From IMG/VR virus record IMGVR_UViG_3300032305_000230, positions 1-31,139 of that record: a stretch of DNA of 31,139 nt. The stretch is one strand, 5' to 3'. Source of the stretch: a virus. Its lineage: Duplodnaviria; Caudoviricetes. Made by a program: the position numbers and the translations under genes. A model generated the notes under the pieces. That model was not told where the DNA came from and did not search any database. It saw only the letters and a list, made by a program, of their open reading frames with translations. Of this stretch, positions 7,941-27,009 are shown piece by piece. The first letter of the stretch is position 1. Each line of letters starts with the position of its first letter.

Positions 7941-8204
7941 TTAAAATGGTACGTCTGAATCCATTTCATCTAGTGGTTGGTTCTGATAGGCATTACCCTT
8001 TGCCATCTCTTTTACTGGAGCTAGGTCAGGTTCTGCTAAGTTAGCAAAGCCATCCCAGTTCAATGGAATCGTCTCAAGTTTGGCAGCTAGGCCACCTGTC
8101 TTTGTTTCCATTACAACACCAATCTTAATCCAACGTGCTTTGGTGTCACCGTTCTTGTCTTTATATTCGCCATTCTTTGCTACTAAGTTATATTTTACAG
8201 CCAT
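7941..8204 (-). CDS. ssb: Single-stranded DNA-binding protein (short phage type)
   Basis: Beta-rich core, acidic tail DEMDSDVPF, and position beside exonuclease and annealase genes. Confidence 0.7.
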   Translation of the reverse strand: MAVKYNLVAKNGEYKDKNGDTKARWIKIGVVMETKTGGLAAKLETIPLNWDGFANLAEPDLAPVKEMAKGNAYQNQPLDEMDSDVPF

Positions 8205-8206
8205 GA

Positions 8207-8812
8207 TTATCTTCCTTTTAATCGTGTAATTACTTGTTCTACTTCATCGTTAAATTCTACTACTTTACTTTCAAGCTCTGCAATATAGGCATCATCACGT
8301 TCATACCGCTTGATGAATAGTTGCATATCTTTAGGTAACTCTGGACAAAACGAGACAAAATCTACCCACTTGCTGTGCGTACAAGACATCTGCCAAGCCA
8401 TCTGAGGAATGTACTTGGCTGGCACCTTGTCGTCAAGTAAATACTTCACGTGTGTTTTAGCCATAGGACATTTAATCTCAATCAAGCCATCATCTACAAT
8501 GCCATCAGGACTCGCGCCACTCATTGCAATCGTTGGATGGTCGATGAATGGAACTTGCTTCACAAACGTTGCGCGTTCTACCTCATACCATGCACGTGCG
8601 ATAGGCTCAAGCTCCGTTCCTCGTTCCATGTGAGCATTGGTATACCCTTCTGCATGTGTGCCTGTTAAACGCTCGCATACGAGTTCTATGCGGTAGTCTG
8701 CACGACTAGCTGCCTCGCCTGTTTTAATCTGAGCGATGACATCTGCAATACGACTAGCAGTAATCTTGCCTAGACGCATCTGGTGCCATGCTTCTGTGCC
8801 TTGTTCAATCAT
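8207..8812 (-). CDS. YqaJ/lambda-exonuclease family recombination nuclease
   Basis: QGTEAW...RLGKITAS, GTELEP, ASPDG, IEIKCP and QMAWQM motifs. Confidence 0.92.
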   Translation of the reverse strand: MIEQGTEAWHQMRLGKITASRIADVIAQIKTGEAASRADYRIELVCERLTGTHAEGYTNAHMERGTELEPIARAWYEVERATFVKQVPFIDHPTIAMSGASPDGIVDDGLIEIKCPMAKTHVKYLLDDKVPAKYIPQMAWQMSCTHSKWVDFVSFCPELPKDMQLFIKRYERDDAYIAELESKVVEFNDEVEQVITRLKGR

Positions 8813-8949
8813 TATCTAATCCTCGGGATTGGTTTTGAAAGCACATACTTGTGGCCCATCTGAGCTACAATTGCGGCTACTTGTCTATCACGCTTTTTCA
8901 TTGCTACTGATGGTGGTGATGACAATCTATAAAAGTTATTCAATAGCAT
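8812..8949 (-). CDS. Small basic hypothetical protein (45 aa)
   Basis: MLLNNFYRLSSPPSVAMKKRDRQ...; ATG 8949 with a GGGG RBS is preferred over 9027. Confidence 0.5.
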   Translation of the reverse strand: MLLNNFYRLSSPPSVAMKKRDRQVAAIVAQMGHKYVLSKPIPRIR

Positions 8950-9160
8950 TTTGTCCCCCGTATCTATACTCGGCAACGTTGCAAGACTCTCCAAACTTAT
9001 TAAAGACACCAATCCTGACTGTTTCAATTTTCATGCCTTTCTTTTTTAGAAGATGGATAATTGCAGATAGTCTGTAAATACCAAGCTCTACCCATGCTTC
9101 AAGCGGATTGACAGCTCTGTGTTGAATCAAGTAATTCTCTAAGCGTTCTTCTTGTGTCAT
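8936..9160 (-). CDS. Helix-turn-helix protein (HTH_39-like)
   Basis: TQEERL..YL....VNPLEAW.ELGIYRLSAII..L.K.G..IET pattern. Confidence 0.8.
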   Translation of the reverse strand: MTQEERLENYLIQHRAVNPLEAWVELGIYRLSAIIHLLKKKGMKIETVRIGVFNKFGESCNVAEYRYGGQNAIE

Positions 9161-9163
9161 GGC

Positions 9164-9748
9164 TTATCCCTCAAAGAGTGAAGCAATTTCTTTGGCCCGT
9201 GCAATGACTAAAGCCTCTGCCTGTTTGTTTCCTTGGCATGCGTTCATTGCTTTCTTGTATGCAACTGTTAGTGCTGCCTTATCTTTCGCTTTGCCTAGGT
9301 CTGCTAGGATTGCATCGGTATCAATGTCAATCTGTGGCAAGTCCTCGCCAGCAAAGATGTATAGACCAATACCAAAGCAAGCAATACATTTAGCCAGGCA
9401 TCGCATTGTCGCATCACTAATCTTACGTGCATCAGGATTTGTGATTGCATTATTGCGGTTATCCATAACTGGCAACTGCATACGCATCGTCTTGCCAAGT
9501 GCTGTAACGTTACAAAATACCATCATGGTGTCGTTATATACCTTTGGCTCTGGAAACTCCCATACAGCTTGTGGGTCTTGCATTAGCAATTGGTCTACAG
9601 CCCATGTCCATGATAGGTATGTGAGCTGGCCTTTCTTTTCTGTAAAATCGTTTACGTTAATCTTGCGTAGTTCTGCGTATGTAGTCATTATCGTGTCCTG
9701 TTGTTTAAGTTCATCCATTACTTCTGCTTGAAATTGTTGCTGACTCAT
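9164..9748 (-). CDS. Sak/Rad52-like single-strand annealing protein (DUF1071); probable main start at 9688
   Basis: LTYLSWTWA, LPVMDNRN, MRCLAKCIACFGIGLYIFAGED motifs; second ATG at 9688 preceded by AGGACACGATA. Confidence 0.88.
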   Translation of the reverse strand: MSQQQFQAEVMDELKQQDTIMTTYAELRKINVNDFTEKKGQLTYLSWTWAVDQLLMQDPQAVWEFPEPKVYNDTMMVFCNVTALGKTMRMQLPVMDNRNNAITNPDARKISDATMRCLAKCIACFGIGLYIFAGEDLPQIDIDTDAILADLGKAKDKAALTVAYKKAMNACQGNKQAEALVIARAKEIASLFEG

Positions 9749-9987
9749 AGGTTATTAGCCTCATTGTCAATAATCAATCCTTCTAAGGCATCCATGACGC
9801 GCTTAGATAATAGTTCTTCAATGTTTTGAGTGCTGTCAGTAAGTTCTACTGAGTGAATGGTAACTGAGTAAATAGTAGGACTATCACCAGTTCCGTATGG
9901 GTCTTTCTCTATGTCACATTCATAGATTACATCTAACTCTATGCCGTAGACTTCAAAAGTTTCTAATGTTCCGTCTTTAATTGCCAT
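9745..9987 (-). CDS. Acidic hypothetical protein, first gene of the leftward operon
   Basis: ORF track; RBS AGGAG. Confidence 0.7.
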   Translation of the reverse strand: MAIKDGTLETFEVYGIELDVIYECDIEKDPYGTGDSPTIYSVTIHSVELTDSTQNIEELLSKRVMDALEGLIIDNEANNL

Positions 9988-10026
9988 TATCGTCTCCTAA
10001 TAGTTAGTACCAAGCGGTACGTGTTC

Positions 10027-10135
10027 ACAATATATATATCTGTGAGCTATCTGTATAATGATTTATTTAAATCGACTTGTCAATATCGATAAGAAATTTT
10101 AATGGATATACTTTTAACATATAGATTATTATTTG
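10027..10135. promoter_or_regulatory. Divergent control region between the recombination and replication operons
   Basis: AT-rich gap between divergent genes, with -10-like hexamers and two AT-N11-AT boxes (10058-72, 10089-103). Confidence 0.5.
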
Positions 10136-10138
10136 TAT

Positions 10139-10185
10139 TGGCTAGGTTATGCAGACCGAAAAGGCGATTCATCTCCGCCCTGCCA
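10139..10185 (+). ncRNA. Three-way-junction structured leader upstream of the replication initiator
   Basis: P1 TGGC(T)AG/CTGCCA; P2 GGTT-ATGCA-GACC; GAAAA linker; P3 GGCG-N9-CGCC. Confidence 0.5.
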
Positions 10186-10223
10186 GCTTTTCTTTTGATG
10201 ATAACTTTTGATGAGGGTTTATT

Positions 10224-10910
10224 ATGCACTACTATCAGCACCACATTGGCGACTTTATTAAGGACACATCGTTCTTAACTAATGAAGAAGTCGGAATATA
10301 TGTAAAGCTAATATGGCTTTACTACGATTCTGAAAAGCCGCTTCCAAATGATATATTTACTCTTAGCATGAAAACAAATGCAAGGGATGTGCAGCCGATT
10401 GTTACTGGCCTGCTAGATATGTATTTCACTTTGCAAGAAGATGGATGGCATCATACTAGATGTGACCAAACAATTGCTGAATACCATAAGCAATTAGACA
10501 CAGCTTCTAAAGCTGGCAAGGCTTCTGCTGAGAAACGGAAACTAAACGCTAGTTCAACTACAGTTCAACATGAATCCAACGAACGTTCAACGACCGTTCA
10601 ACCAACCAATAACCATAAACCAATAACCAATAACCAACTAACTACAAAACCCTCGCGCGAAATCGCGCTTGTTGTTTCGCATGACTTTGAAACTTTCTGG
10701 CATACATATCCAAAGAAAGTAGGAAAGGATGCAGCGCTTAAATCGTGGAACAAGGCAAAGCCATTTCTTGATGATGTATTAAACGCATTATATTGGCAGA
10801 AAGAATCTGAGCAATGGAAGCGTGAGAATGGCAAGTATATTCCGAACCCATCCACGTATCTTAATCAGGGTCGTTGGAAAGATGAAGCACCAGTAGAGGA
10901 GTTATGGTAA
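10224..10910 (+). CDS. Replication initiator, DUF1376/YdaU family (lambda O analogue)
   Basis: N-terminal YYQHHIGDF..DT.FLT.EE.G.Y..L...YY..E.PLP; C-terminal FETFW..YPKKVGK..A...W and YIPNPSTYLNQGRW. Confidence 0.88.
   Translation: MHYYQHHIGDFIKDTSFLTNEEVGIYVKLIWLYYDSEKPLPNDIFTLSMKTNARDVQPIVTGLLDMYFTLQEDGWHHTRCDQTIAEYHKQLDTASKAGKASAEKRKLNASSTTVQHESNERSTTVQPTNNHKPITNNQLTTKPSREIALVVSHDFETFWHTYPKKVGKDAALKSWNKAKPFLDDVLNALYWQKESEQWKRENGKYIPNPSTYLNQGRWKDEAPVEELW
10552..10668 (+). repeat. Putative replication origin inside the initiator gene
   Basis: GTTCAAC at 10552, 10563, 10585 and 10596 (ATCCAAC at 10574), an 11-bp period; five tandem AACCAAT-like heptamers at 10604-38; inverted repeat GCGCGA-AA-TCGCGC at 10655-68. 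Confidence 0.75.
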
Positions 10911-11233
10911 TGTTAGAACATGACAAACTGCCGTTTAAGAAAATGATGGGCGCATTGACTACAAACTATAGCAAGCCAGAGCTTGACATCGAGATGCTGC
11001 GCTTATGGTGGAGCAAGCTAAAGGTCTATGAGTTTAATATGGTATCGCTGGCCTTGAGCAAGTGGATAGGCACAAACAAGAAGATGCCAACCATTGCAGA
11101 TGTGATAGAGTTATGCAAAGCACAAGAGAAGCGCGTATTTGATATGGCCTTGCCTCGTAGATATACAGATGAGGAGCGCCAGGCTAATCGTGATAGGCTT
11201 GCTGACATGCGTAAACAATTGGGGTGGCGATGA
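10910..11233 (+). CDS. Putative helicase loader (lambda P / G39P-like role)
   Basis: Directly follows the initiator (TAATG coupling, RBS GAGGAG). LWWSKL..Y...V..A...W......MPTIADV pattern. Confidence 0.6.
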   Translation: MLEHDKLPFKKMMGALTTNYSKPELDIEMLRLWWSKLKVYEFNMVSLALSKWIGTNKKMPTIADVIELCKAQEKRVFDMALPRRYTDEERQANRDRLADMRKQLGWR

Positions 11234-11463
11234 AGTGGTATCCTTGGGGCGCTTACGCAATAGTAAACTTCAAGTATAAGGCAGGAGATGTGGATAAGGT
11301 CATACGCATGAAAGGCTATGCAATTTCTAAATCCCCTCGCCTAGAAGGTGGCAATATCTATCAGGTGTGGATGCTGCCCTCTTTGCTGCTAGGAAAATTT
11401 GATGACGTGGAAAGTGCAAAGGCAAAAGTCGCCCAGCATTTAAAAGAGAATGAACCAAAATAA
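11230..11463 (+). CDS. Hypothetical protein
   Basis: ORF track; ATGA overlap at 11230. Confidence 0.6.
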   Translation: MKWYPWGAYAIVNFKYKAGDVDKVIRMKGYAISKSPRLEGGNIYQVWMLPSLLLGKFDDVESAKAKVAQHLKENEPK

Positions 11464-11740
11464 ATTTCTACGCCCCTTCGCCTATTTATTGGTTTTGGCA
11501 AAAAATGGCAAAAAGTTTAAAAAAATCGGTAAAAATAAACCAAAAGTTTAGAATTGTGGGAAAAAATAAACTCGCGCCATAGTTTTAAAATAATGGCTTC
11601 ATGCAAGGGCGTATAAATGACAATCAATAAAGAACCTATATCTCACTATCAAATTGATATTAAAATGCGCCTATGGCCTTAAAAATAGGCTTGGCGCGTG
11701 TTTAATAGTTTAATAACTCATGCCACAATCAAAAGGCAAT

Positions 11741-11764
11741 AAAAAAGCCCCGTTATAGGGGCTT
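11741..11764 (-). terminator. Intrinsic terminator of the leftward early cluster
   Basis: Minus strand AAGCCCC-TATAAC-GGGGCTT followed by a U-run, just past the stop at 11772. Confidence 0.8.
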
Positions 11765-11771
11765 GATTAAT

Positions 11772-11948
11772 CTACCACCCGTTATTTAATTGCCAGGCAT
11801 GGTTTATGTTATGCAAAAACGTTTTAGCGTCCACAACGTCAGTTTCGTAATATTCCGCGAATCTTTCTAATGTTAGAAAATTGTTTTTCCAATCTAAATA
11901 GATAGATTCTGCAGCGCTTTCCATTGGGTCAAGTGTTGATAAATACAT
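11772..11948 (-). CDS. Small early phage protein (58 aa)
   Basis: MYLSTLDPMESAAESIYLDWKNNFLTLERFAEYYETD...; the YLDWxNNFLT..FAEYY pattern is one I associate with small phage proteins. Missed by the ORF track. Confidence 0.7.
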   Translation of the reverse strand: MYLSTLDPMESAAESIYLDWKNNFLTLERFAEYYETDVVDAKTFLHNINHAWQLNNGW

Positions 11949-11950
11949 AA

Positions 11951-12418
11951 TTAAGCCCTTTTCCCGTCAATTGTGAATTCGTATTCATTCATTAAAATAG
12001 TTTCATCGATATACTCATCGGATTCTTGAAAGCGCAAATCATCACGCCAGGCTTGAAAACCTAAAGATAAGGCATAATTAAAGGCGTCCAAGGCCCCGCG
12101 CTCTTTAAAAGCACCAACAAAAGCCGTTTGCATTAATTCCCCAATGCAATAACCGTCTGATAATTGCATTTTATCGGCTTGTCGGAATGTTAAGCCCCTG
12201 AAGGCGTCATTTGTGGCATCTGTTGTAAAATCGAAACGTGATGAATCAATCTCATAATCTTTTAATCTAATGTGAAAACACGCGCAAAAATGCTTAATGC
12301 TATCCGCGCTCTCATCTAGCCAGGCATATTGTCCTTCACGGAACCATGCACGGGCTTCGTCCTTTGCTTCGTCTGTTAATTCGTCAAAAGTATAAATATC
12401 TAATATTTGTTGTCTCAT
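11951..12418 (-). CDS. Acidic early phage protein (YxFDEL...NEYEFT.DG family), function unknown
   Basis: Family-like termini IYTFDELTDEAKDEAR and NEYEFTIDG; RBS AAGGGG. Confidence 0.75.
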   Translation of the reverse strand: MRQQILDIYTFDELTDEAKDEARAWFREGQYAWLDESADSIKHFCACFHIRLKDYEIDSSRFDFTTDATNDAFRGLTFRQADKMQLSDGYCIGELMQTAFVGAFKERGALDAFNYALSLGFQAWRDDLRFQESDEYIDETILMNEYEFTIDGKRA

Positions 12419-12499
12419 AATAAAACCCCTTATCGTGTGTTTATCGTATCGGCTTAATGCAAGCCCTTAAACCCTCAATGCGAGGGCTTAAAGAATACA

Positions 12500-12790
12500 T
12501 TAAAACTTCGTCATACATTCGCGCAGGGTTCGCATTTCATCAGTCCAAGATTGTCCGCAGCAATAATCAGCGCCATATTTATCACTAAACATAATCCGTG
12601 AATATATCCCGTAATCTTTCCATAATGACAAAGGCAAGCGCAGGCGCCTGGCTAATGTTTCTTTGGTGTTAGTCCTGCAGCCTTTTCCAACAAAATCCAA
12701 AATGGCCGCTTGTTGTGTTTCTGTTAGATATTCGGGGCCATTCTTATGTTTGGCCTCATATATTGCATGTGAAAGATTATTTTGGTTCAT
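12500..12790 (-). CDS. Hypothetical early protein
   Basis: ORF track; RBS AAGGA. Confidence 0.7.
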   Translation of the reverse strand: MNQNNLSHAIYEAKHKNGPEYLTETQQAAILDFVGKGCRTNTKETLARRLRLPLSLWKDYGIYSRIMFSDKYGADYCCGQSWTDEMRTLRECMTKF

Positions 12791-12802
12791 GGTGTCGTGT
12801 CC

Positions 12803-12904
12803 TTATCGTAATAATGGTGAATTGGTTAATGCAAAATCAAAAGAGTAAAGAAAACCTATAAAGGCGATTGTCACTAGAATGTATAAAGCCCAATCGTGTC
12901 GCAT
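12803..12904 (-). CDS. Small membrane peptide (33 aa)
   Basis: MRHDWALYILVTIAFIGFLYSFDFALTNSPLLR* fills the gap between neighbouring genes; RBS AGGGG. Confidence 0.55.
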   Translation of the reverse strand: MRHDWALYILVTIAFIGFLYSFDFALTNSPLLR

Positions 12905-12905
12905 A

Positions 12906-13190
12906 TTAAGCACCCCTAAAATGTTTGTCATAAATGCTTTTATCGTTAAAAAGCTCGTTTTTAATTTGCTCAATCTTGCCACGTGGTGAGATATAAGCCC
13001 AAAAACTTATGCGAGTTTCATACCATGGTGAGTTTGGGGCATTTGTGATACTGATTAAAATTGTTTCAGTATTTGGTATTTCTGTTGTCTTGATGATTGG
13101 GGAAACTTGGAAACAAGGCTTATTGCAATAATAATCAATCTCATATTGTAAGTTTGCGAGCTTTCTTACTTGGTGCTTAGTTAATGTCAT
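12906..13190 (-). CDS. Hypothetical early protein
   Basis: ORF track; RBS AAGGA. Confidence 0.7.
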   Translation of the reverse strand: MTLTKHQVRKLANLQYEIDYYCNKPCFQVSPIIKTTEIPNTETILISITNAPNSPWYETRISFWAYISPRGKIEQIKNELFNDKSIYDKHFRGA

Positions 13191-13259
13191 TTTATCGTGT
13201 CCTTATCGTTTGCTTAACATCTGCTTAAAATTTAATCAGCTTGGTGTTTCGTTCGCTGA

Positions 13260-13342
13260 TGGCGCATTATAATCACAAGTCTTATTGCATGTGTTAATCA
13301 TTTGTTTTTATGATAAAGTGATAATCAATAAGTTTTATTTAT
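13260..13342 (-). promoter_or_regulatory. Leftward early promoter with a perfect -10 and paired upstream boxes
   Basis: Minus strand TATAATGCGCCA (13271-13260), no consensus -35, AT-N11-AT boxes at 13297-311 and 13328-342. Confidence 0.55.
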
Positions 13343-13358
13343 CAATGAGGTTAAGTGA

Positions 13359-13940
13359 TTGTTTGATATACCAAAAAAGAAGCCCACAATCGAGTTAAAA
13401 GAAAAGAAGCCCGACGCGCGATTCTATTCTGTTATCCCATTGAGGGCGATACATGACAAGAGATTAACAAGGGGGGATTATATTAATCTAATCTCTTTAT
13501 GCTCTTATTGCTCAAATAATGGCTTTACGTTTGTTGCATATTCCACCATTGCACAATTAAGAGGGTGCAGCGTACAAAATACTGCTAGGGGAATGAAGAA
13601 ACTGCAGAGCTTGGGATACTTTGAGATTGTTAGAAAAGGATATACGGGATTAAGAGGCGCATTAAAGAGGGTTATATTCGACGATTCATTAAGCATTGAA
13701 GATATTATAAGCATAAGCAATACACCAATTGAAACACCAACAATAGAGGCTCAAACTATGGCTAGATATAAGAAGGCAGCAACACCAATCAATCATCAGG
13801 CAGATGCAAATACACCGATAAGTTTTAATGATGCTGTACTAGCTGTTTCTCAATCTCTCAAGAGTGATGAAGATTTGTTAAGGCTAGAGCAATTAGTCTC
13901 TAAGGGGGTGACACTAGCGGAGTTATTAGAGGCTTTCTAA
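13359..13940 (+). CDS. Winged helix-turn-helix protein (HTH_36-like, replication/regulatory)
   Basis: YSVIP..AI.D..LT......L..LCSY....G......STIA...G.S....AR....L...GY pattern; TTG start with GAGG RBS. Confidence 0.75.
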   Translation: MFDIPKKKPTIELKEKKPDARFYSVIPLRAIHDKRLTRGDYINLISLCSYCSNNGFTFVAYSTIAQLRGCSVQNTARGMKKLQSLGYFEIVRKGYTGLRGALKRVIFDDSLSIEDIISISNTPIETPTIEAQTMARYKKAATPINHQADANTPISFNDAVLAVSQSLKSDEDLLRLEQLVSKGVTLAELLEAF

Positions 13941-14149
13941 TGGGTGGGTCATTCTAGCTAGTAAATATCAAGGGGGTTAGTGCGAATCGTGTGGTGTGTA
14001 GCGTGTGAGAGAATCGACCCTATGCCCCCCCACCCCATCGCTTAGCGGTAGGGGTACATGAAGCAATTTTTCGCTGGTTTTTTGTAGTAACAGATAAGTT
14101 ACCATGATGTATATAGCGTGTGTGTATGGCATGTAGGGATTAAAGACAA

Positions 14150-14376
14150 AGGAAAACCTAACCCGAATAAAATAAGTATTCAGATAAAAACACCTTACGG
14201 TGCGCTACTCTCGTTTATCTAATCTATACCTGTATGGTACCCACAGCTCTTGGCCCCGATTTTATCACTAACCTTGCATATAGCTTGCGTTAGCCTTTAA
14301 GGAGTACCCTGCGGTTCGATATGTTTATCTGCATCTGTCGTAGCTACATTTGCAAGGGCTGGGTAATGGCCCCGTT
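14150..14376 (-). ncRNA. Candidate ~230-nt highly structured non-coding RNA
   Basis: No ORF; near-continuous stems including a GNRA hairpin; duplicated CGGGGCCA and AGATAAAC motifs; upstream promoter. Confidence 0.6.
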
Positions 14377-14381
14377 CATTT

Positions 14382-14409
14382 AATATACACTCTTTATATA
14401 TTTTTGCAA
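14382..14409 (-). promoter_or_regulatory. Leftward sigma70-like promoter for the candidate ncRNA
   Basis: Minus strand TTGCAA-N16-TATATT. Confidence 0.55.
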
Positions 14410-14420
14410 GCTATTTATTA

Positions 14421-14449
14421 TGATATACTAAGATATACACTAGATATAT
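14421..14449 (+). promoter_or_regulatory. Extended -10 promoter overlapped by three phased GATATA repeats (putative RHH operator)
   Basis: TG-A-TATACT at 14421-29; GATATA at 14422, 14432 and 14443. Confidence 0.5.
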
Positions 14450-14460
14450 AAGGGGTTGAC

Positions 14461-14580
14461 ATGTGGTGGTGGGTATTAGGAGTAGGGTTAGTGGCATCTA
14501 TAATATGGGTGGCATGTGAGATAGTAATAGAGAAGATGTTTGACAATAGTGATTTAGGAGATTCAGACTATGGCTGTTAA
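14461..14580 (+). CDS. Small membrane protein (39 aa)
   Basis: MWWWVLGVGLVASIIWVACEIVIEKMFDNSDLGDSDYGC*; RBS AAGGGG. Confidence 0.5.
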   Translation: MWWWVLGVGLVASIIWVACEIVIEKMFDNSDLGDSDYGC

Positions 14581-14755
14581 TGAATACAACAAGTTCTTGG
14601 TGCGATTGACACCAAAGACCAGGGCAATGCTTGATGCTGCACATAAAGATAAGGAAATGCCTAGGGCGCACATTGTGAACCTAGCATTAAAGAGTTATCT
14701 TAAAGAATATAGTAATGTAGACTTAAATGCACGTTTAAATGCACTAAGCACATGA
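14570..14755 (+). CDS. Ribbon-helix-helix (Arc/CopG-like) regulator
   Basis: KFLVRL beta ribbon followed by two helices (TPKTRAMLDAA; RAHIVNLALKSYL); RBS AGGAG. Confidence 0.75.
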   Translation: MAVNEYNKFLVRLTPKTRAMLDAAHKDKEMPRAHIVNLALKSYLKEYSNVDLNARLNALST

Positions 14756-15102
14756 TATTAACACTTCCATATCCACCATCAGTTAATACGTATTGGAGAG
14801 CAAATGGAAAAAGACGCTTTATTTCTAAAGCTGGTGTGGAGTTTAAAAATGCTGTGCAGGAATATGTTATTGATAATGCAATTCCTAAACTTGGCAGCGC
14901 TCGCCTTCGTGTGGACATTGTTATTCGCCCTCGTAGTCGTCGCATATTTGATATTGACAATCTGCTCAAAGCTATCCTCGATGCTCTCATGAACGCTGGC
15001 GTGTACGATGATGATAGTCAAGTAGATGATTTACACATAACCCGTGGCGACCCATGCCCTAATGGTGCTTGCTTAGTAGTAATCGAGGTAATTAATGGCT
15101 GA
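14752..15102 (+). CDS. rusA: RusA-family Holliday junction resolvase
   Basis: LPYPPSVNTYWR, DIDNLLKAILDAL and DDSQV motifs. Confidence 0.92.
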   Translation: MILTLPYPPSVNTYWRANGKRRFISKAGVEFKNAVQEYVIDNAIPKLGSARLRVDIVIRPRSRRIFDIDNLLKAILDALMNAGVYDDDSQVDDLHITRGDPCPNGACLVVIEVING

Positions 15103-15556
15103 AAAAGAAGATACAAGGAAGATTAAACGCATCCCATCGCTTAAGAACTATGGTGGTGTGCGTACTATTCAGAAAACACTAGAACGTTCTGCAACACTAG
15201 AAGCCAATCGTGAGGCCGTCGCTTATGCCTTGCTAACAATGGCTAACACAAATCTTACTGACATTATGAGTTGGGATGAACATGGTAACATTAAGGTTAA
15301 AGCGTCGCACGATATACCAGAGCATGCGTTACAGGCGATTAAGAGTATCAAATCAAATACTCGCTACGATAAGGAAGGGAACGCGACTACGACACTTGAC
15401 ATCGAACTCTTTGATAAAATTGGTGTTCTTAGGTTATTGGCAAAAGCGTCTGGGTTACTCGACCAGGCTCAAGAATCTGACAAGCCTTCAGTAATTGGCG
15501 TAAACATTGTGGCTCCAGACCCTATAGATGCAGAGGTAATAGATGGCGAAAACTAA
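15095..15556 (+). CDS. terS: Terminase small subunit
   Basis: Directly upstream of and overlapping terL; AIKSIK...IELFDK..LRLL pattern. Confidence 0.7.
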   Translation: MAEKEDTRKIKRIPSLKNYGGVRTIQKTLERSATLEANREAVAYALLTMANTNLTDIMSWDEHGNIKVKASHDIPEHALQAIKSIKSNTRYDKEGNATTTLDIELFDKIGVLRLLAKASGLLDQAQESDKPSVIGVNIVAPDPIDAEVIDGEN

Positions 15557-17099
15557 AGAACAGTCTGCCAAACAGGTATCGTTTGACGGATTAAACCTAA
15601 ACTTTGCAAAGTCTCCAGAGGTATATAGGTTCCTGCAAGACGATTCGTTTGTGCAAGGGCTAATGGGGCCTGTAGGTAGTGGTAAGTCATACGCCTGCTG
15701 TGCAAAAATTTTTATAAAAGCGTTACAACAAAAGCCATCCCCTGTTGACAACGTGCGTTATTCACGTTTTGCTGTAGTCCGTAACAGTTATCCTATGTTA
15801 AAGACAACAACCATCAAGACATGGCTTGACTTATTCCCTGAGTCTACGTTTGGCCCTATGCTTTGGACTCCACCGATTACGCACCATATACGTTTGCCTG
15901 CAAAGGGAGACGCGGCTGGGGTTGACTGCGAGGTTATCTTCTTAGCACTTGACCAACCTAAAGATGTGCGTAAACTTTTGTCCTTGGAACTTACAGGAGC
16001 ATGGGTAAATGAAGCCAGAGAACTACCTAAAGCTGTTATTGACGGCCTTACTCATCGGGTTGGTCGCTATCCTACAAAGCGTGACGGTGGCGCGACATGG
16101 CACGGAGTCTTTATGGACACCAACCCAATGGATGATGACCATTGGTGGCACCGAGTAGCAGAGAAAGAAAAGGTAACAGGCTTATACGCTTGGAACTTCT
16201 TTAAACAACCAGGTGGGGTGATTGAAGTAGACCCTGCTAACTTGCCTGATAACCCAGAAGCCAATGACCATATCTTTGCGTCAGGCCGTTGGTGGAAGAT
16301 TAATCCTAAAGCAGAAAATCTAAATAATCTACCTGCTGGCTACTATCCACAGATGCTTGGTGGCAAGAACCTTGACTGGATTCGCTGTTACGCAGAAGGT
16401 AAATATACCTATGTGCAAGAAGGTCGCCCTGTGTGGCCTGAGTATAACGACCAAATGATGACAGCTACGATTGAGTATGACGATTCACAGCCTATACAGA
16501 TTGGCTTGGACTTTGGTTTAACGCCAGCAGCAGTCATTGGTCAGCGTTTAGCTAATGGTCGATGGGTTGTATTACATGAGATTGTTACTGAGGACATGGG
16601 TTTGGAGAGGTTTGGTCAACAACTACTTGCAGAATTAAACGCACGTTATCCTAAAGCACAGGTGATGATGTGGGGAGACCCTGCTGGTATGCAAAGGGAT
16701 GCCATTTATGAAGTCACCGCGTTCGATTATCTCAGGACTCTTGGTCTACGCGCACAACCAACCCATTCGAACGACTTTAAAGTCCGTCGTGAGGGGGCTG
16801 CTGCTCCTATGCAACGTCTTATTGATGGTAAACCTGGACTAATGGTGGACACTTCATGCAAGATGCTACGTAAATCCTTGGCTGGTGGGTACCATTTCAA
16901 GCGCGTATCAGTAGGGGCAGGGCAAGAACGCTTCCGTGATGCACCAAATAAGAACGAACATTCCCACGTTGGTGATGCTTTTGGCTATTTGATGCTTGGT
17001 GGTGGGGAACATAAGCGCATGACACGTAATCCACTTGCATCTAGTGGCCCTATCTTTGCTAAAACCGTGATGACTGACTTCGATGTATTTAAGTATTAG
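15543..17099 (+). CDS. terL: Terminase large subunit
   Basis: Walker A GPVGSGKS, Walker B AWVNE, motif III DTNP, nuclease motifs GLDFG and SHVGDA. Confidence 0.95.
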   Translation: MAKTKEQSAKQVSFDGLNLNFAKSPEVYRFLQDDSFVQGLMGPVGSGKSYACCAKIFIKALQQKPSPVDNVRYSRFAVVRNSYPMLKTTTIKTWLDLFPESTFGPMLWTPPITHHIRLPAKGDAAGVDCEVIFLALDQPKDVRKLLSLELTGAWVNEARELPKAVIDGLTHRVGRYPTKRDGGATWHGVFMDTNPMDDDHWWHRVAEKEKVTGLYAWNFFKQPGGVIEVDPANLPDNPEANDHIFASGRWWKINPKAENLNNLPAGYYPQMLGGKNLDWIRCYAEGKYTYVQEGRPVWPEYNDQMMTATIEYDDSQPIQIGLDFGLTPAAVIGQRLANGRWVVLHEIVTEDMGLERFGQQLLAELNARYPKAQVMMWGDPAGMQRDAIYEVTAFDYLRTLGLRAQPTHSNDFKVRREGAAAPMQRLIDGKPGLMVDTSCKMLRKSLAGGYHFKRVSVGAGQERFRDAPNKNEHSHVGDAFGYLMLGGGEHKRMTRNPLASSGPIFAKTVMTDFDVFKY

Positions 17100-17571
17100 A
17101 GAATTAAACGATAATATGCCCAAGATAAACGGGATAGTGTTTGCTCCGTTTGTTTTTGAACATGCAATGGACATTGAAGGCGGTGAGTTTGCTGGATATT
17201 CTGCACAGCGCATGGTTGGCGTAAAAATAATGCTAGAAACTCAAGCACAATTTGGATTTGCCTACACTTGTTTCCTACATGGACAGCCTGTTGCTGTGTT
17301 TGGCTCATCTTTACTGTGGGGTGGCGTTGCAGAAATGTGGTCTGTCATTGGAGATGTAGCTAGAACCAAGCCAATTGCCATGACAAAGATAGGAATTGCA
17401 TTTGCAGATATATCAGAGATAGCTATGGGCTTGCATAGATTGCAAATAACTGTTAAAACATCAGATAATCGCGCTATTAATTGGGCTAGAGCTATCGGTT
17501 TTATATCCGAGTGTACTATGAAGCAATATAGTGAGGATAGAGAGGACTTTAATTTAATGGTTAGGGGTTAA
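17083..17571 (+). CDS. GNAT-fold acetyltransferase-like protein
   Basis: LHRLQITV..DN.RAINWARAIGF..E..MKQY matches the C-terminal GNAT (RimJ/RimL-type) pattern. Confidence 0.7.
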   Translation: MYLSIRELNDNMPKINGIVFAPFVFEHAMDIEGGEFAGYSAQRMVGVKIMLETQAQFGFAYTCFLHGQPVAVFGSSLLWGGVAEMWSVIGDVARTKPIAMTKIGIAFADISEIAMGLHRLQITVKTSDNRAINWARAIGFISECTMKQYSEDREDFNLMVRG

Positions 17572-17573
17572 TT

Positions 17574-17822
17574 ATGGGAAGTAAAGTCGGTGGAAGCTCT
17601 AGTGCAGGAGTACAAAGTAAGGCATCTGGACAAAAATATGGAAGTTTAAATATGAGTTCATTTTACGATTTACAAAATGCTACAAATAGAGCCAATGGAA
17701 AAAAAGATTCTAAATCAACAGAGCCTGCTATAGATGAAAATTTAGGGTCAGTCTCATCTGTTTCTACTATTAGAAAAAATAGAGGTTTGTTGTCAAATTC
17801 AATGTCAGATACTTTAGGTTAG
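17574..17822 (+). CDS. Small putative virion protein (AT-rich, paralogue-like of the next gene)
   Basis: Starts MGS.. and ends R.LLS....TLG, like 17832-18071. Confidence 0.55.
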   Translation: MGSKVGGSSSAGVQSKASGQKYGSLNMSSFYDLQNATNRANGKKDSKSTEPAIDENLGSVSSVSTIRKNRGLLSNSMSDTLG

Positions 17823-17831
17823 GAGATAAGC

Positions 17832-18071
17832 ATGGGCAGTATTCTTGGTGGTGGTGATGGTGGTGCAGAAGCAGCAAGACAGCAATTGGCAATGCAACAA
17901 GCTGAAACAGAGCGCTTGCGTAAACAAGAAATGGAAACAAGGCGTGACTTGGGTGAGGAATTAGCATCTAAACGTCTAGCTCGCGCTCGTGGTGGCGCTC
18001 GTATGTTGTTATCAGAAGCACGTACAAACCCAGAAGAAGGCTTGTCTGCACAAACTACGCTAGGTGCTTAA
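17832..18071 (+). CDS. Small putative virion protein upstream of the portal
   Basis: MGSILGGG, coiled coil, RMLLS...TLGA; RBS AGGAG. Confidence 0.65.
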   Translation: MGSILGGGDGGAEAARQQLAMQQAETERLRKQEMETRRDLGEELASKRLARARGGARMLLSEARTNPEEGLSAQTTLGA

Positions 18072-18072
18072 C

Positions 18073-18222
18073 ATGGAAAAGACAAAGATGCAAAAGAAAG
18101 TGTCTAAAGTCATGCGTGAGTATAAGGCTAGCAAACTTAAATCTAGCTCTGGTGATAAAGTTGTAAACAAAGACCAAGCTATTGCAATCGCAATGTCTGA
18201 GGCAGGAGTAAAACGCAAATGA
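18073..18222 (+). CDS. Small basic protein (DUF6496-like, 49 aa)
   Basis: KVSKVMREYKASKLKSSSGDKVVNKDQAIAIAMSEAG; missed by the ORF track. Confidence 0.75.
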   Translation: MEKTKMQKKVSKVMREYKASKLKSSSGDKVVNKDQAIAIAMSEAGVKRK

Positions 18223-18374
18223 AAGCTGGATTATATGCAAACATTCATGCAAAACGTAAGCGTATTGAAGCTGGCTCTAAAGAAGAAATGCGTGAGCCTG
18301 GTTCAGAAGGCGCTCCTACAGATGCAGCATTTAAGAAAGCAGCTAAGACTGCTATGAAAAAGAAGCCTAAATAA
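18219..18374 (+). CDS. Small basic phage protein (51 aa)
   Basis: MKAGLYANIHAKRKRIEAGSKEEMREPGSEGAPTDAAFKKAAKTA...; translationally coupled on both sides. Confidence 0.75.
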   Translation: MKAGLYANIHAKRKRIEAGSKEEMREPGSEGAPTDAAFKKAAKTAMKKKPK

Positions 18375-18967
18375 TGGCTATTCAAGTAGAGCGCGAGTCA
18401 TCTACCACCAAGTCTAGGTTTGTATCGCCTACCTATACAGACAAAGATGGCGTACAGCAAGTTATTGGCTCTGATAGGTCAATGCCTATCATTGACGTAA
18501 ACCATCTTCGTTTGCATGAAGGTCGTGCATACTATGCTTATCACACACATAAAGATACAGGCAGATTGGCAGTTGGCTCAAGCATTAACATTGCTTTAGC
18601 TTTTCCAGCAGGAGTGGATGCTCATGCCGAAATTGATTATCAATGTGGTGGCGAGGCTGAGATTTATGTATATGAATCTCCAACAACAAGTGGTGGCACA
18701 GCCATGACTTTACATAGGCGCAATAGAGTAATTAATACAGCTAGTCAAGGCGTTGCTGTTTTAAATCCTACGGTAACCGCAGTTGGAACCGAGTTTTACT
18801 CAGAGCTGATTACAAGTGCAGAGGGTCAAGGGAATAGAAGTGGCGCTGGTGGTCGTGGTATTAGTTTTGAATTTATATTAAAGCCATTAACAACATATTT
18901 ATTCCGCTTAACTAATGTAAATGGGGCGTCACAAATGGCTGAAATGCGTATAGATTGGTATGAATAA
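18374..18967 (+). CDS. Hypothetical protein, probably structural (beta-rich)
   Basis: ORF track; coupled within the late operon. Confidence 0.65.
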   Translation: MAIQVERESSTTKSRFVSPTYTDKDGVQQVIGSDRSMPIIDVNHLRLHEGRAYYAYHTHKDTGRLAVGSSINIALAFPAGVDAHAEIDYQCGGEAEIYVYESPTTSGGTAMTLHRRNRVINTASQGVAVLNPTVTAVGTEFYSELITSAEGQGNRSGAGGRGISFEFILKPLTTYLFRLTNVNGASQMAEMRIDWYE

Positions 18968-19236
18968 TGAAGAAAGAACATAAGAATCCAGAGGGCGGAT
19001 TAACAGAAGCTGGGCGTAAATACTTTAAACGCACAGAAGGTGCTAATCTAAAGGCTCCTGTTAAAGAAGGCACAAACCCTAGACGCGTATCATTTGCAGC
19101 TAGGTTTGGTGGAATGAGTGGGCCTCTTGTGGATGAGAATGGCAAGCCTACTAGATTGAAGTTAGCACTAAAGGCTTGGGGATTTGGCAGTAAAGAAGCC
19201 GCACGTAAGTTTGCAAATACACATAAAAAGAGTTAG
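18967..19236 (+). CDS. Small basic phage protein (GGL..AGR...SF.AR..GM...LKAW family)
   Basis: Motif recognisable from small proteins near podovirus portal genes. Confidence 0.7.
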   Translation: MKKEHKNPEGGLTEAGRKYFKRTEGANLKAPVKEGTNPRRVSFAARFGGMSGPLVDENGKPTRLKLALKAWGFGSKEAARKFANTHKKS

Positions 19237-19244
19237 GAAACAAT

Positions 19245-20828
19245 ATGGCTGAAACTAGATTATCCCCAGAGCAAATTCTCAAGCGTCACGAGATTGCTTT
19301 GACCAAGAAAGAGGAGTTCCGTAGCCTGTACGATGAGGCTTACGAATTTGCATTGCCACAACGGAATCTGTATGACGGATTTTATGATGGTAAGGTAGGT
19401 GGCGCTAAGAAGATGAACCGTGTGTTTGATGCTACAGCTATTAACTCTACACAACGCTTTGCCAACCGCATGCAGTCAGGTATTTTCCCTCCGCAAACTA
19501 AGTGGTGTCGTCTTGAGGCTGGTACAGATATTCCTGCTGACCGTAAAGCAGAAGCACAAGGTGCGCTAGATGTATATACCGAGAAGATGTTTGCAACGAT
19601 TAAGCAATCTAACTTTGACATTGCAGTAGGCGAATCGCTACTAGACTTGTGCGTAGGCACATCTGTAATGATGGTACAGCCTGGCGATGATACTAGCCCA
19701 ATTAACTTTATCCCTGTGCCACAATTCTTAGTCGCTTTTGAAGAAGGCGCTAATGGTCGTGTAGATAATGTGTATCGTCGTATGCGTTTAAAAGGCGAGG
19801 CTATTCAGCAACAATGGAAAGACGCTAAGATTGATGGCGCATTAAAGAATAAGATTGACCAAAAGCCTACAGAAGATATTGAGCTAATTGAGGCTACTGT
19901 TTATGACCAAGTTAAAGGCGATTATGGTTACTACGTTATCCATAAAGAGAGCAAGACTTGCATTGTTTACCGTCGTATGAAGTTTAGCCCTTGGGTTGTA
20001 TCACGCTACATGAAAGTAGCTGGTGAAATCTATGGTCGTGGCCCGTTAATCACAGCATTGCCTGACATCAAGACATTGAACAAAGTGCTAGAGCTAGTGC
20101 TTAAAAATGCGTCATTAGCTATTGCTGGTGTTTATACTGCTGCTGATGATGGCGTACTTAACCCTAATACCGTCACAATCGCTCCAGGCGTGATTATTCC
20201 TGTTGCTCGTAACGGTGGGCCACAAGGCGAGTCATTAAAGCCTTTACCGCGCTCTGGTGACTTCAATGTTTCTCAAATTGTGATGAACGACTTGCGTATG
20301 AACATTAAGTCAATCTTGCTTGATGAATCATTGCCACCAGATAACATGTCAGCTCGCTCTGCTACAGAAGTAGTAGAACGTATGAAGCAGTTATCACAGA
20401 ACTTAGGCTCTGCATTTGGTCGTTTGATTAATGAAACGATGGTTCCATTAGTAGAGAAGATTCTACAGATTATGGATGAGCGTGGCATCATTGACTTGCC
20501 ATTAAAGGTGAATGGTCTTGAGATTAAGGTAACACCTGTGTCTCCATTGGCTATGTCACAGAACATGGATGACGTACAAAACATCTTGCAATACGCGCAA
20601 ATCGTACAGCAGTCTGGCCCAGATGGTCAATTTGCTATGAAAACCGATGCCCTATTGGACTTGATTGCTGATAAAATGTCTATTCCACAGGCTGTTCGTA
20701 ACTCACCAGCAGAGCGTGATATGATGAAACAACAAGCAATGCAAATGGCACAACAGGCTAGAGAACAAGCAGACCCAAATAATCCTGTTGACATGCAATT
20801 ATTGGAGGCGATGAAAAATGCAGGGTAG
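19245..20828 (+). CDS. Portal (head-to-tail connector) protein
   Basis: VFDATA, YGRGP..ALPDIKTLN and SATEV..R motifs of T7 gp8/Bbp21-type portals; 527 aa. Confidence 0.93.
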   Translation: MAETRLSPEQILKRHEIALTKKEEFRSLYDEAYEFALPQRNLYDGFYDGKVGGAKKMNRVFDATAINSTQRFANRMQSGIFPPQTKWCRLEAGTDIPADRKAEAQGALDVYTEKMFATIKQSNFDIAVGESLLDLCVGTSVMMVQPGDDTSPINFIPVPQFLVAFEEGANGRVDNVYRRMRLKGEAIQQQWKDAKIDGALKNKIDQKPTEDIELIEATVYDQVKGDYGYYVIHKESKTCIVYRRMKFSPWVVSRYMKVAGEIYGRGPLITALPDIKTLNKVLELVLKNASLAIAGVYTAADDGVLNPNTVTIAPGVIIPVARNGGPQGESLKPLPRSGDFNVSQIVMNDLRMNIKSILLDESLPPDNMSARSATEVVERMKQLSQNLGSAFGRLINETMVPLVEKILQIMDERGIIDLPLKVNGLEIKVTPVSPLAMSQNMDDVQNILQYAQIVQQSGPDGQFAMKTDALLDLIADKMSIPQAVRNSPAERDMMKQQAMQMAQQAREQADPNNPVDMQLLEAMKNAG

Positions 20829-23115
20829 AGATGATATTGCACGTATAGCTTCGGCTAGGGCAGTTGAAATTGCTTCAAGAGCAATTAGTCTTGCTTCGTC
20901 AGTCAAAGGCGAAAAGGGAGATAAGGGAGACCCAGGCGAGATTGTCCTTAAGAATGTTCCTGTTCCTGGAGAAAAGGGCGAGCAAGGCGACAAAGGCGAA
21001 CGTGGCTATACTGGAGCGCAAGGCCCTAAAGGTGATAAAGGAGATAGGGGCGAAAAAGGCTATGATGCTGTTGGCGAAAAAGGTGACAAAGGCGACAAGG
21101 GTGATACTGGCCCACAAGGTGAGCGTGGGTTTACTGGGCCTAAAGGATTTAAAGGTGACGAAGGCGAGCGAGGTCTAACTGGCCCAATACCTAAGCATGA
21201 GATTAAAGGACTTAAGTTTAGATTTCAGCAAGACGATGGAGATTGGGGCAAGTGGATTATTGTTCCAACAGGCGGTGGCGGTGGTGGTCGTGATGACAAA
21301 TTATTTGACCGTCAAAAAGAATTAGTAATTATTGCTGATGCCTATAAAAATAACATTAATCCTTTTCCAGATGCAACTGGTGGTGGTATGGTTTACCCTG
21401 GCGCTGGCATCCCTAATTCTACTGGTAGCGCATGGGGAACATCTTATGGTGTTACAGGTACAGGTAGTGTTGTATTAAGTGATGCACCTTCTTTAACAGG
21501 CGCAGTAACAATAGGCAGCACTACTGGTACCGCAACAGTAACATTAGGGCAAAGCACAGGCGCACAAACAGTCAACATTGCAACTGGTGTTAATAACTTA
21601 AGTGCTAAAACAGTTAATATAGGCACAGGTGCAACTACTGGGGCTACTAATATAACTATTGGGCCAACAGGAACTGGTTCAGGTAATACAACTATAAATA
21701 TCGGGGAAAATGCAAGGACTTCTAACACTACAACAGTTAATATTGCTACAGCAGCTACTTCTAGCGGTGTTTCAGTTATTAGACTTGGCACTATTGCTAG
21801 TGGAACAGCAAACATTGCTATTGGTTCAAATACCGCATCAGGTGCAACAACGATTAATGGAGAGGTATCTTTAACAGCAACAAACCAAGCAATTAATATT
21901 GGTGGCACAAACAGTACAGGCTTAATTACGCTAGGCAGACCAACAACATCATCACAAACTATTGACATAGCTAACGCTGTTCTTGCTACTGGTAGAACTC
22001 AAACAATTAACGTAGGTGCATCAGGTGCATCAGGCTCTACAACTAACATTGCTATTGGCTCTACAGCAGGTACAAGCACTACAACAGTCAATGGGGCAGT
22101 AACTCTATCAGCAACAACACAAGCACTTAATCTAGGCAATAGTCAATCAAGTGGTGCAATAACTGTTGGCGGTACAAGTGCTACTGGTGCAATTGCAATA
22201 GGGCAATCTACAGGCGCACAAACAGTCAATATTGCCACAGGTGCTAATACAGCATCTACTAAAACAGTTAATATAGGCACAGGCGGTACATTTACTACTA
22301 ATATTAATATGGGGAATACCGCAGGTAGCGGCACATTAACTTTTGGACAATCCACAGGCTCACAACAAATTAATATAGGTACAGGTGCTACATTAAATGC
22401 ACAAAATAAAAATATTTTTATAGGCACAAATGGTGCTGTAGGCTCAACAACTAATATTAGAATAGGAAATTCAGCAAGACCATTGACTGCTTTTATTTTC
22501 TTAGATGGCATTGTTACATATGGAACAAGTTTTGCACAAACACCTGTTACAGTTGCAAATTTACCATCAGGTGGAGATGCTCTTGTAGGAGACAGATATA
22601 TTGTAAGCAATGCATTAAGTCCAAGAGCAGGTTCAACTGTCGTAGGCGGCGGTGCAGCAACAATGCCTGTTTACTATGACGGCACTAATTGGATATGTGA
22701 TGCAGGGTTAGGCGCAACGACAGGAACAGGTAGTGTTGTTTTAAGCGATAGCCCAACATTTACAGGCATTGTAACTGCAAACAATGTTCGTAGTAATTCA
22801 ACAACAATAGCCAGCGCATCAACAATCACACCAACATCAAATACTACAAATCAATACACAGTTACTGCGCTTGCAGTTCCAGCAACAATTGCAGTACCTT
22901 CAGGAAGTCCTATTGATGGACAAAAACTTTCAATAAGAATTAAAGATGATGGTACAGCACGAGCATTAACTTGGACTACATCAGCAGGTGGGTTTAGAGT
23001 TATTGGTACGACACTACCAACGACTACAACAGCATCTAAGGTTACTTATGTAGGCTGTGTCTATAACTCACAAGACTCCTTTTGGGATGTTTTGGCTGTA
23101 GCAACTCAAGCATAG
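20818..23115 (+). CDS. Fibre protein with collagen-like (Gly-X-Y) stalk and beta-helical repeats
   Basis: GEKGDKGD-type triplets at ~20908-21189, repeated T(V/I)NIGTG units, and a fibre-type C-terminal domain; RBS GGAGG. Confidence 0.8.
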   Translation: MQGRDDIARIASARAVEIASRAISLASSVKGEKGDKGDPGEIVLKNVPVPGEKGEQGDKGERGYTGAQGPKGDKGDRGEKGYDAVGEKGDKGDKGDTGPQGERGFTGPKGFKGDEGERGLTGPIPKHEIKGLKFRFQQDDGDWGKWIIVPTGGGGGGRDDKLFDRQKELVIIADAYKNNINPFPDATGGGMVYPGAGIPNSTGSAWGTSYGVTGTGSVVLSDAPSLTGAVTIGSTTGTATVTLGQSTGAQTVNIATGVNNLSAKTVNIGTGATTGATNITIGPTGTGSGNTTINIGENARTSNTTTVNIATAATSSGVSVIRLGTIASGTANIAIGSNTASGATTINGEVSLTATNQAINIGGTNSTGLITLGRPTTSSQTIDIANAVLATGRTQTINVGASGASGSTTNIAIGSTAGTSTTTVNGAVTLSATTQALNLGNSQSSGAITVGGTSATGAIAIGQSTGAQTVNIATGANTASTKTVNIGTGGTFTTNINMGNTAGSGTLTFGQSTGSQQINIGTGATLNAQNKNIFIGTNGAVGSTTNIRIGNSARPLTAFIFLDGIVTYGTSFAQTPVTVANLPSGGDALVGDRYIVSNALSPRAGSTVVGGGAATMPVYYDGTNWICDAGLGATTGTGSVVLSDSPTFTGIVTANNVRSNSTTIASASTITPTSNTTNQYTVTALAVPATIAVPSGSPIDGQKLSIRIKDDGTARALTWTTSAGGFRVIGTTLPTTTTASKVTYVGCVYNSQDSFWDVLAVATQA

Positions 23116-23123
23116 GATAAAAC

Positions 23124-25333: not shown

Positions 25334-25338
25334 ATATT

Positions 25339-26988: not shown

Positions 26989-27009
26989 GCATATTCTCCA
27001 ATAGACTTT

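Follow-up and report, generated by a model that had tools for sequence, protein, structure and literature searches.

The locus studied here raises the question of whether a non-coding interval beside the packaging operon of a phage genome encodes an RNA of its own, and what such an RNA might do. The genome is the IMG/VR virus record IMGVR_UViG_3300032305_000230, analysed as a whole (31,139 bp, referred to below as the window; completeness estimate 92%), and belongs to a podovirus-like phage. For the interval upstream of its RHH-rusA-terS genes the original prediction, made from the letters of the sequence, had proposed a promoter-driven, densely structured and possibly undescribed non-coding RNA (ncRNA) read from the minus strand. 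This proposal is borne out by a conserved promoter, by covariation among homologues, by RNA contigs in four metatranscriptomes and by the lack of a match in Rfam. The locus encodes a member of a new, expressed, pseudoknotted ncRNA family of phages related to MEP301, undescribed as far as our searches show.

Relatives of the locus were collected as RusA-anchored loci on viral contigs and compared by blastn, the marine set being anchored on the RusA of the Methylophilales (OM43) phage MEP301, which is the nearest cultured phage (79.5% protein identity in terL). In these comparisons the segment 14155-14461 stands out as a discrete block, more conserved than the flanking genes (77% versus 67% overall in locus L008, for example), and a core of about 52 nt is retained even where RusA is only 68% identical. 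A covariance model of the family, R1, matches the window at 14154-14383 (206.6 bits, E 1e-55) and finds the RNA in 98 of the 98 sources searched. Covariation among homologues upstream of RHH-rusA-terS had been suggested as a check of the predicted fold, and compensatory changes are indeed present both in the helices and in the pseudoknot. In a MAFFT alignment of 38 non-redundant sequences (A1), 99.2% of the cells are paired compared with 33-56% in slid controls, and changes on both sides occur in 12 of the 31 pairs; RNAalifold run on the same alignment reports compensatory changes in 11 of its 31 predicted pairs. The corresponding values are 99.5% versus 40-53% and 18 of 27 pairs in alignment A2 (67 distinct sequences of the 98 hits), and 95.3% versus 32-46% and 20 of 27 pairs in the marine alignment A3 (38 distinct sequences). 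Both A2 and A3 were fitted to R1, a problem from which A1 and its slid controls are free. The compensatory changes span helices up to 70 nt apart and a pseudoknot of 200-nt range, and the G-U pairs are compatible with the minus-strand reading only. We regard the conservation of five to six predicted helices and of a loop-tail pseudoknot through compensatory changes as well supported.

Most stems proposed from the single sequence were recovered by comparison, namely GGGGC/GCCCT as P1 (GGGGC/GCCC), TGCA-aa-TGT/ACA-ga-TGCA as P2, the long-range CCGCAG/CTGTGG as P3, GTACC/GGTAT as P4, the CACC/GGTG hairpin as P5 and GAATA/TATTC as the optional P6 (Table 1). P1 is nearly invariant in the freshwater sequences, its covariation being supplied by the marine set (GC 31 / AU 6 / UA 1 and CG 33 / GC 5). 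Over A1-A3, P2 is 100% paired with compensatory changes in 3-5 of 8 pairs, P3 has them in 4-5 of 6 pairs and P4 in 4-5 of 5, with up to four pair types per position. The interior of P3 is variable or, in MEP301 and L098, absent, and the proposed CTAAC/GTTAG stem, real in the lineage of the window, turned out to be only a lineage-specific form of this inner hairpin, which reads UCUC/GAGA, UCCC/GGGA or UCCA/UGGA in other lineages. A hairpin at the place of P5 is predicted by RNAfold 0-10 nt (mostly 2-5) after junction strand B2, or GAUAAACGAGA, in 60 of the 62 distinct P5-P6 segments; the stems differ widely, and in four lineages (L115, L117, L136, L140) structured insertions of 50-90 nt occupy the loop. 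The second hairpin, P6, is predicted in 31 of the 62, the window's own segment not being among them; its equivalents elsewhere are AAUAAA/UUUAUU or GAUAAU/AUUAUC, and it is absent in MEP301 and L091. For two further proposed stems, GATA/TATC and AGATAAA/TTTATCT, the relatives show no conservation.

The suspected pseudoknot of the first loop is confirmed in that the loop does pair, but its partner is the 3'-terminal CGGGU (14161-14164) and not the TGGGTA near 14240. The pairing is 100% preserved, with one pair changed from C-G to U-A in 5 of 37 distinct sequences; these form a divergent clade in which the P1 loop carries ACCU rather than ACCC and the tail CAGGU rather than CGGGU, the pairing being otherwise invariant. 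RNAalifold offered an alternative closure of the 5' and 3' ends, AGCCC with the 3' GGGUU, which was dropped because the P1 hairpin covaries and the ACCU/AGGU clade fits the loop-tail pseudoknot only. The repeated 8-mers lie where they had been placed (GATAAAC at 14213 and 14323, CGGGGCC at 14252 and 14368). Of the two related domains that they had been taken to suggest, only an exposed (G)AUAAAC strand remains, which is conserved, occurs twice and in both places lies close to a hairpin's 3' side. In MEP301 this exposed motif is lengthened to AUAAACGAG and is likewise present twice. The signature of the family in R1 comprises, in order, the P1 loop CAUNACCC(A), P2 with GUAG...GAC internal loops, AUAAAC, P3/P4, GAUAAACGAGA, P5 and a C(G/A)GGU tail that pairs with the P1 loop.

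Table 1. Positions of the ncRNA, its promoter and predicted structural parts, and of neighbouring features in the window
Feature	Position	Strand	Remarks
Structured ncRNA	14157-14375	-	about 219 nt; 5' end inferred from promoter spacing, 3' end (...CGGGUUAGG) from adapter-abutted RNA contig
-35 hexamer	14404-14409	-	TTGCAA; RNA promoter
-10 hexamer	14382-14387	-	TATATT; RNA promoter
P1 hairpin	14356-14372	-	GGGC (14372-14369) with GCCC (14359-14356); loop CAUUACCCA
Pseudoknot 5' strand	14361-14364	-	ACCC in P1 loop; partner 14161-14164
P2/P2b hairpin	14329-14355	-	UUGCA-AA-UGU ... ACA-GA-UGCAG; conserved internal loop
Junction strand B1	14323-14329	-	(G)AUAAAC; invariant in A1, AUAAAC kept across marine set
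P3 domain	14241-14314	-	CCGCAG (14314-14309) with CUGUGG (14246-14241), long-range
P3a, within P3	14304-14301 / 14257-14254	-	CUCC with GGGG; compensatory in marine set
P3b, within P3	14294-14289 / 14272-14267	-	variable hairpin
P4 hairpin	14226-14240	-	GUACC with GGUAU
Junction strand B2	14209-14221	-	UAGAUAAACGAGA; invariant in A1, GAUAAAC(G)AGA kept across marine set
P5 hairpin	14190-14203	-	GCACC-GUAA-GGUGU; stem sequence and loop variable
P6 hairpin, optional	14165-14181	-	GAAUA with UAUUC
3' tail	14157-14165	-	CGGGUUAGG; GGGU (14164-14161) is the pseudoknot 3' strand
Conserved non-coding block	14008-14086	- (RNA-sense)	GAAAAAUUG, then CCCC...GGGG hairpin, then G-run
HTH gene, replication-initiator-like	13359-13940	+	matches replication-initiator and DnaD-like PHROGs; HTH_36 in Pfam
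RHH gene	14570-14755	+	then RusA, terS, terL onwards on the same strand (Pfam and PHROG scans)
Recombination genes	7.3-10 kb	-	
DUF1376 / helicase-loader replication module	10224-11233		Pfam and PHROG scans; DUF1376 gene 10224-10910

The promoter named in the original prediction, TTGCAA-N16-TATATT, is found on the minus strand at 14409-14382 and is conserved in relatives. A sigma-70-type pattern, TTGNNN-N16-18-TANNNT, stands 6-7 nt ahead of the ACGGGG head of the RNA in 77 of 83 distinct upstream sequences, the -10 hexamer being TATATT in 41 and TATAAT in 11 of these 77, and the six sequences without the standard pattern have apparent TG-extended -10 elements. Wherever it was found, the RNA lies on the strand opposite to rusA, its gene diverging from that operon. 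The next gene downstream was examined in three loci (the window, L095 and L091) and is in each a convergent HTH gene of about 195-218 aa. No conserved open reading frame (ORF) lies inside the RNA, as had been claimed; the longest closed ATG-ORF has a median length of 19 aa over 101 homologues. Because of the convergent next gene in these three loci and the absence of a conserved inner ORF, we consider the element to be a stand-alone RNA gene and not a leader. An intrinsic terminator conserved across lineages was not found, a terminator-like combination of P5 with a U run being restricted to the subgroup of the window. The promoter region also contains an 18-nt direct repeat, ATATACAC...ATATA, at 14383-14400 and 14433-14450 (50 nt apart), one copy overlapping the -10 region of the RNA promoter and the other lying towards the RHH gene; TATATC-type repeats are kept in the promoter/RHH spacer of relatives, and the 18-nt repeats, placed between the divergent promoters, are possibly bound by the RHH protein as its operator.

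Expression of the RNA is seen in four RNA sequencing runs from four studies, all of them lake or freshwater metatranscriptomes that share words with the region. Each run gave one short contig, of 232 nt in X15 (depth 81.5), 151 nt in X18 (12.2), 155 nt in X19 (11.5) and 157 nt in X20 (3.8), and all of them are confined to 14157-14368. They are 95-99% identical to the window and for this reason are attributed to close relatives of its phage. Illumina adapter abuts position 14157 in X15 and position 14368 in X18, so that the contig ends are the ends of short molecules and not breaks in longer contigs. The 3' end, ...CGGGUUAGG, lies 4 nt beyond the pseudoknot strand, just where conservation ceases. 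At the other side, the 5' end lies 7 nt inside the start expected from the promoter position, and such a shortfall is usual for libraries of this kind. RNA contigs covering 13950-14156 or 14369-14543 were absent from the four runs, which is a weak hint of the transcript limits, and the only other contig near the RNA is at 14556-14600 (depth 2.7, X15). In X15, contigs 93-97% identical to many genes of the window phage were found over 20 kb (window 8000-27999), from which we conclude that a close relative was actively infecting cells in this sample and that the RNA accompanies infection. Among the eight longest X15 contigs listed, beside which there are 68 further pieces, the depth of the RNA contig is, as a rough comparison, second only to that of a capsid-like gene (27119-27680; 127.6), the phage mRNAs ranging from 5.9 to 23.8.

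The remark that the element could not be matched to tRNA, tmRNA, introns or known small ribozymes also stands. ARAGORN finds 0 tRNA or tmRNA genes in the window, and Rfam 15 (4227 models, among them pRNA, 6S, tmRNA, RNase P, SRP, Y RNA, the self-cleaving ribozymes, riboswitches, HEARO and group I/II introns) leaves the RNA unmatched, its single hit at the gathering threshold over the whole window being int-alpA (10135-10201); within 14050-14500 even E<=10 yields only a chance 11.8-bit match to EBv-sisRNA-1, whose gathering score is 58. The locus is not of the type III antitoxin, CRISPR-like, retron, or bridge or omega RNA kinds, with only two 8-mers repeating and with HTH, RHH, RusA and terS as neighbours, and no reverse transcriptase, Cas, IS110, TnpB or IscB turned up in a Pfam scan of 13 neighbouring ORFs or a PHROG scan of 30 ORFs. 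A description of the RNA was not found in the literature searched, and the accessible part of the paper on MEP301 does not mention an ncRNA (PMC8024684). The family falls within a known kind, that of stand-alone structured phage RNAs. With raiA, ROOL and GOLLD, which we take to be the appropriate comparison as orphan 'ornate' structured RNAs of bacteria and phages, it shares the stand-alone gene, the invariant junctions, the covarying helices of variable length, the pseudoknot, the association with phages and the abundance in environmental RNA. In contrast to them, it is smaller (about 190-250 nt), is matched by no Rfam model of those families and has been found so far in MEP301-like podophages only.

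Within these phages the RNA is widespread, R1 placing it upstream of rusA in 64 of 80 freshwater and 54 of 80 marine loci, with most of the loci lacking a hit being short of upstream sequence. MEP301 itself has a single match (record positions 33424-33611, plus strand, 86.1 bits, E 2e-22), unannotated, in the spacer between gp53 and gp54 with an overlap into the end of gp54; this copy is too divergent for blastn of 13900-14600, which gave no match in the cultured-phage collection, and it was found by eye and with R1. The next-nearest cultured phage, Pelagibacter phage Hodr, gives no R1 match. A scan with the core pattern matched 95 viral contigs, and among 185,579 species genomes one short contig of a metagenome-assembled genome (MAG), so the element is not a common feature of prophages. 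This MAG contig (L184, CAZPCB010000025.1, 2735 bp, labelled Candidatus Saccharibacteria) carries a full copy of the RNA (246 bits); no prophage context is seen in its 2.7 kb, which are too short for naming a host, and it is probably a mis-binned phage contig. The host of the window phage is inferred to be a freshwater methylotroph related to OM43, given the kinship with MEP301 and the lake origin of RNA runs.

Natural variants of the locus exist. Four close relatives (L011, L012, L015 and L017, RusA 87-92% identical to that of the window) have no RNA match between the conserved flanks. In L011 (183-1126, minus strand), which was read in detail, a leader of about 110 nt, a gene for a 147-aa HNH endonuclease and about 330 nt of non-coding DNA occupy exactly the place of the RNA, between the same promoter and the same downstream spacer. 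They have the look of a mobile cassette, or of an alternative cargo for the RNA's transcription unit, and an Rfam scan of the cassette loci of L011, L015 and L017 found nothing. In L113 (2404-2562) the whole P3-P4 block is deleted. Because of these four relatives, the HNH cassette and the P3-P4 deletion, the RNA is probably accessory to the phage.

Downstream of the RNA, at a distance of 70-320 nt and outside the mature molecule, a second non-coding element is conserved. It consists of CAAAAAAC-AGCGAAAAAUUG, a CCCC...GGGG hairpin with a variable interior and then U-GGGGGGG. Of 70 distinct freshwater stretches downstream of the RNA, 57 contain it in the RNA sense and none in the opposite orientation; with the pattern as used it was found in 2 of 25 marine stretches, and the HNH-cassette relative L011 has it too. 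RNA contigs did not cover 14008-14086 in the four runs, and contigs can miss rare longer forms. The block is possibly linked to the RNA and may serve as a G-rich switch, as a terminator or as part of an origin. A G-quadruplex was considered and is not claimed, the strict pattern occurring in only 23 of 100 downstream stretches. Of iterons there is only a weak three-copy family of 14 nt near the block, which is flanked by short direct repeats (also weak).

As to function, the explanation that we prefer, with a probability of about 0.35, is that the RNA is a trans-acting folded molecule that binds a protein partner at the phage-host interface and is accessory, not essential. The junction strands and the P2 internal loop are invariant and the helices vary in sequence and length; invariant joining strands together with freely varying helices and a long-range pseudoknot suggest a specific three-dimensional core. 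Such a pattern of conservation, as it appears in the alignments, is unlike that of seed-pairing small RNAs or of repeat-based sponges. The RNA would act in trans through a core built from the pseudoknot, the P2 internal loop and the strands (G)AUAAAC and GAUAAACGAGA, and this core would bind a ligand, most likely a protein. As no conserved terminator is found after the RNA, its 3' end would come from processing or from trimming that stops at the pseudoknot.

Several points weigh against this explanation or against the evidence below it. A catalytic or a base-pairing role would fit the same pattern of conservation, no known protein-binding motif was recognised in the RNA, and the RHH and HTH genes, whose products might have been its partner, are present also in relatives without the RNA. 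Expression was read from assembled contigs, which give no strand, exact ends or level and allow only rough comparisons of depth. The shuffle counts should not be taken as probabilities, the sequences being related to one another and A2 and A3 having been fitted to R1; the C-G to U-A change in the pseudoknot is probably a single evolutionary event. Lastly, the folding energy of the single sequence, which had been set in advance as a check and expected to be better than that of shuffles, is ordinary (minus strand z = -0.14 for 14150-14385 and z = -0.40 for 14157-14375; plus strand z = +0.87). This last failure is outweighed, in our opinion, because the test is weak and covariation is present; the signal above chance comes from covariation and expression and not from the fold of one sequence.

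Among the other explanations, that of a replication-linked transcript, in which the RNA would be the structured 5' part of a transcript fired towards an origin-like region and activating or priming replication, is unlikely but deserves a discussion. In ColE1 RNA II, the T4 origin transcripts and mitochondrial 7S RNA (LSP-CSBII), as here, transcription from a promoter of the host RNA polymerase carries a structured RNA in the direction of a G-rich element, the replicon being dependent on host polymerases. The convergent neighbour resembles replication initiators, the downstream block lies on the RNA-sense strand in most freshwater stretches with short direct repeats (a weak sign) around it, and in L011 the cargo has been swapped but promoter and block are retained on either side of it. 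The accessible part of the MEP301 paper, moreover, reports no phage DNA or RNA polymerase (PMC8024684). In contrast to the known origin and primer transcripts, however, the mature RNA stops well before the G-run and is exchangeable for an HNH cassette; the block is without an RNA contig and rare in the marine stretches, the genome has a separate DUF1376/helicase-loader module, and the origin as well as an R-loop or hybrid at it are hypothetical here. Somewhat more doubtful still is a base-pairing small RNA that would regulate host or phage mRNAs by pairing with them through its invariant single strands. Its exposed invariant strands of 6-13 nt and high abundance would suit such a role, and a CUCCUU segment resembles an anti-Shine-Dalgarno sequence, but no complement of at least 12 nt exists elsewhere in the window, 11-mers occur at chance level, and the size, the six helices and the pseudoknot are far more elaborate than is typical of seed-pairing small RNAs. 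It is improbable, too, that we are dealing with a new ribozyme, for example one cutting itself out of a longer transcript and so making its own 3' end. Invariant junctions, variable peripheral helices, the pseudoknot and a defined 3' end without a conserved intrinsic terminator would all be expected of it, but no Rfam model of a self-cleaving ribozyme matches, and exonuclease trimming to the pseudoknot could explain the 3' end equally well. We give as little credence to the wider proposal of a new catalytic or self-processing class of phage RNA, with the junction strands and the loop-tail pseudoknot as the putative active site, releasing the RNA or acting on a host substrate; if this is so, the phages of streamlined aquatic methylotrophs would have a ribozyme family of their own.

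The position of the gene next to the terS-terL-portal operon recalls the pRNA of phi29, which is likewise phage-encoded, of similar size, transcribed from its own promoter beside packaging genes and equipped with a conserved 4-bp loop interaction. If the ACCC loop and the GGGU tail paired between molecules, rings or chains could form on the portal or terminase, and the conserved, covarying 4-bp pairing and an abundance of the same order as that of the capsid mRNA contig would agree with a role in packaging or assembly. Such a role is nevertheless very improbable: the pRNA model does not match, these phages have terS and terL, the pairing here may form within or between molecules and may well be intramolecular, and natural relatives with a RusA up to 92% identical do without the RNA, which argues against a packaging requirement of the phi29 type. 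Still less can be said for a cis-acting leader or riboswitch of a downstream gene. The RNA begins right at the promoter and in some lineages is followed by a small ORF on the same strand, but these ORFs are not conserved, the RNA contigs end at the conserved 3' tail without a terminator common to the lineages, and the gene order with its convergent neighbour largely refutes this idea. The least probable possibility is that there is no RNA gene at all and that the interval, an intergenic control region rich in repeats, is a DNA site (an operator, a pac site or a single-stranded DNA structure) or a small protein gene. The single-stranded DNA element offered as an alternative in the original prediction is unlikely because RNA contigs exist and the G-U pairs suit the minus strand only; the compensatory changes over long distances, the adapter-bounded short contigs in RNA libraries and the very short ORFs speak against the remaining variants.

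OM43 and the related freshwater methylotrophs are abundant, streamlined bacteria. The family points to a role for RNA at the phage-host interface that has escaped annotation centred on proteins. Some 100 distinct sequences, the model R1 and a phage and host in culture (MEP301 and OM43 strain FZCC2181) are now available, so that this role is directly testable.

Two minor features of the window lie outside the RNA gene. The int-alpA motif (RF02996, 10135-10201, plus strand) scores 36.1 bits against a gathering score of 35.8 and is situated directly upstream of the DUF1376 gene; no integrase turned up among the 13 ORFs scanned against Pfam or the 30 against PHROGs. The plus strand has eight copies of the heptamer GATATAC, every one within 10.1-15.3 kb (window 10105-15311), and the minus strand has one copy. 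Several plus-strand copies, at 10105, 13365, 14422 and 14432, stand just before gene starts, which makes the heptamer a possible motif for a promoter or a regulator in the early region.

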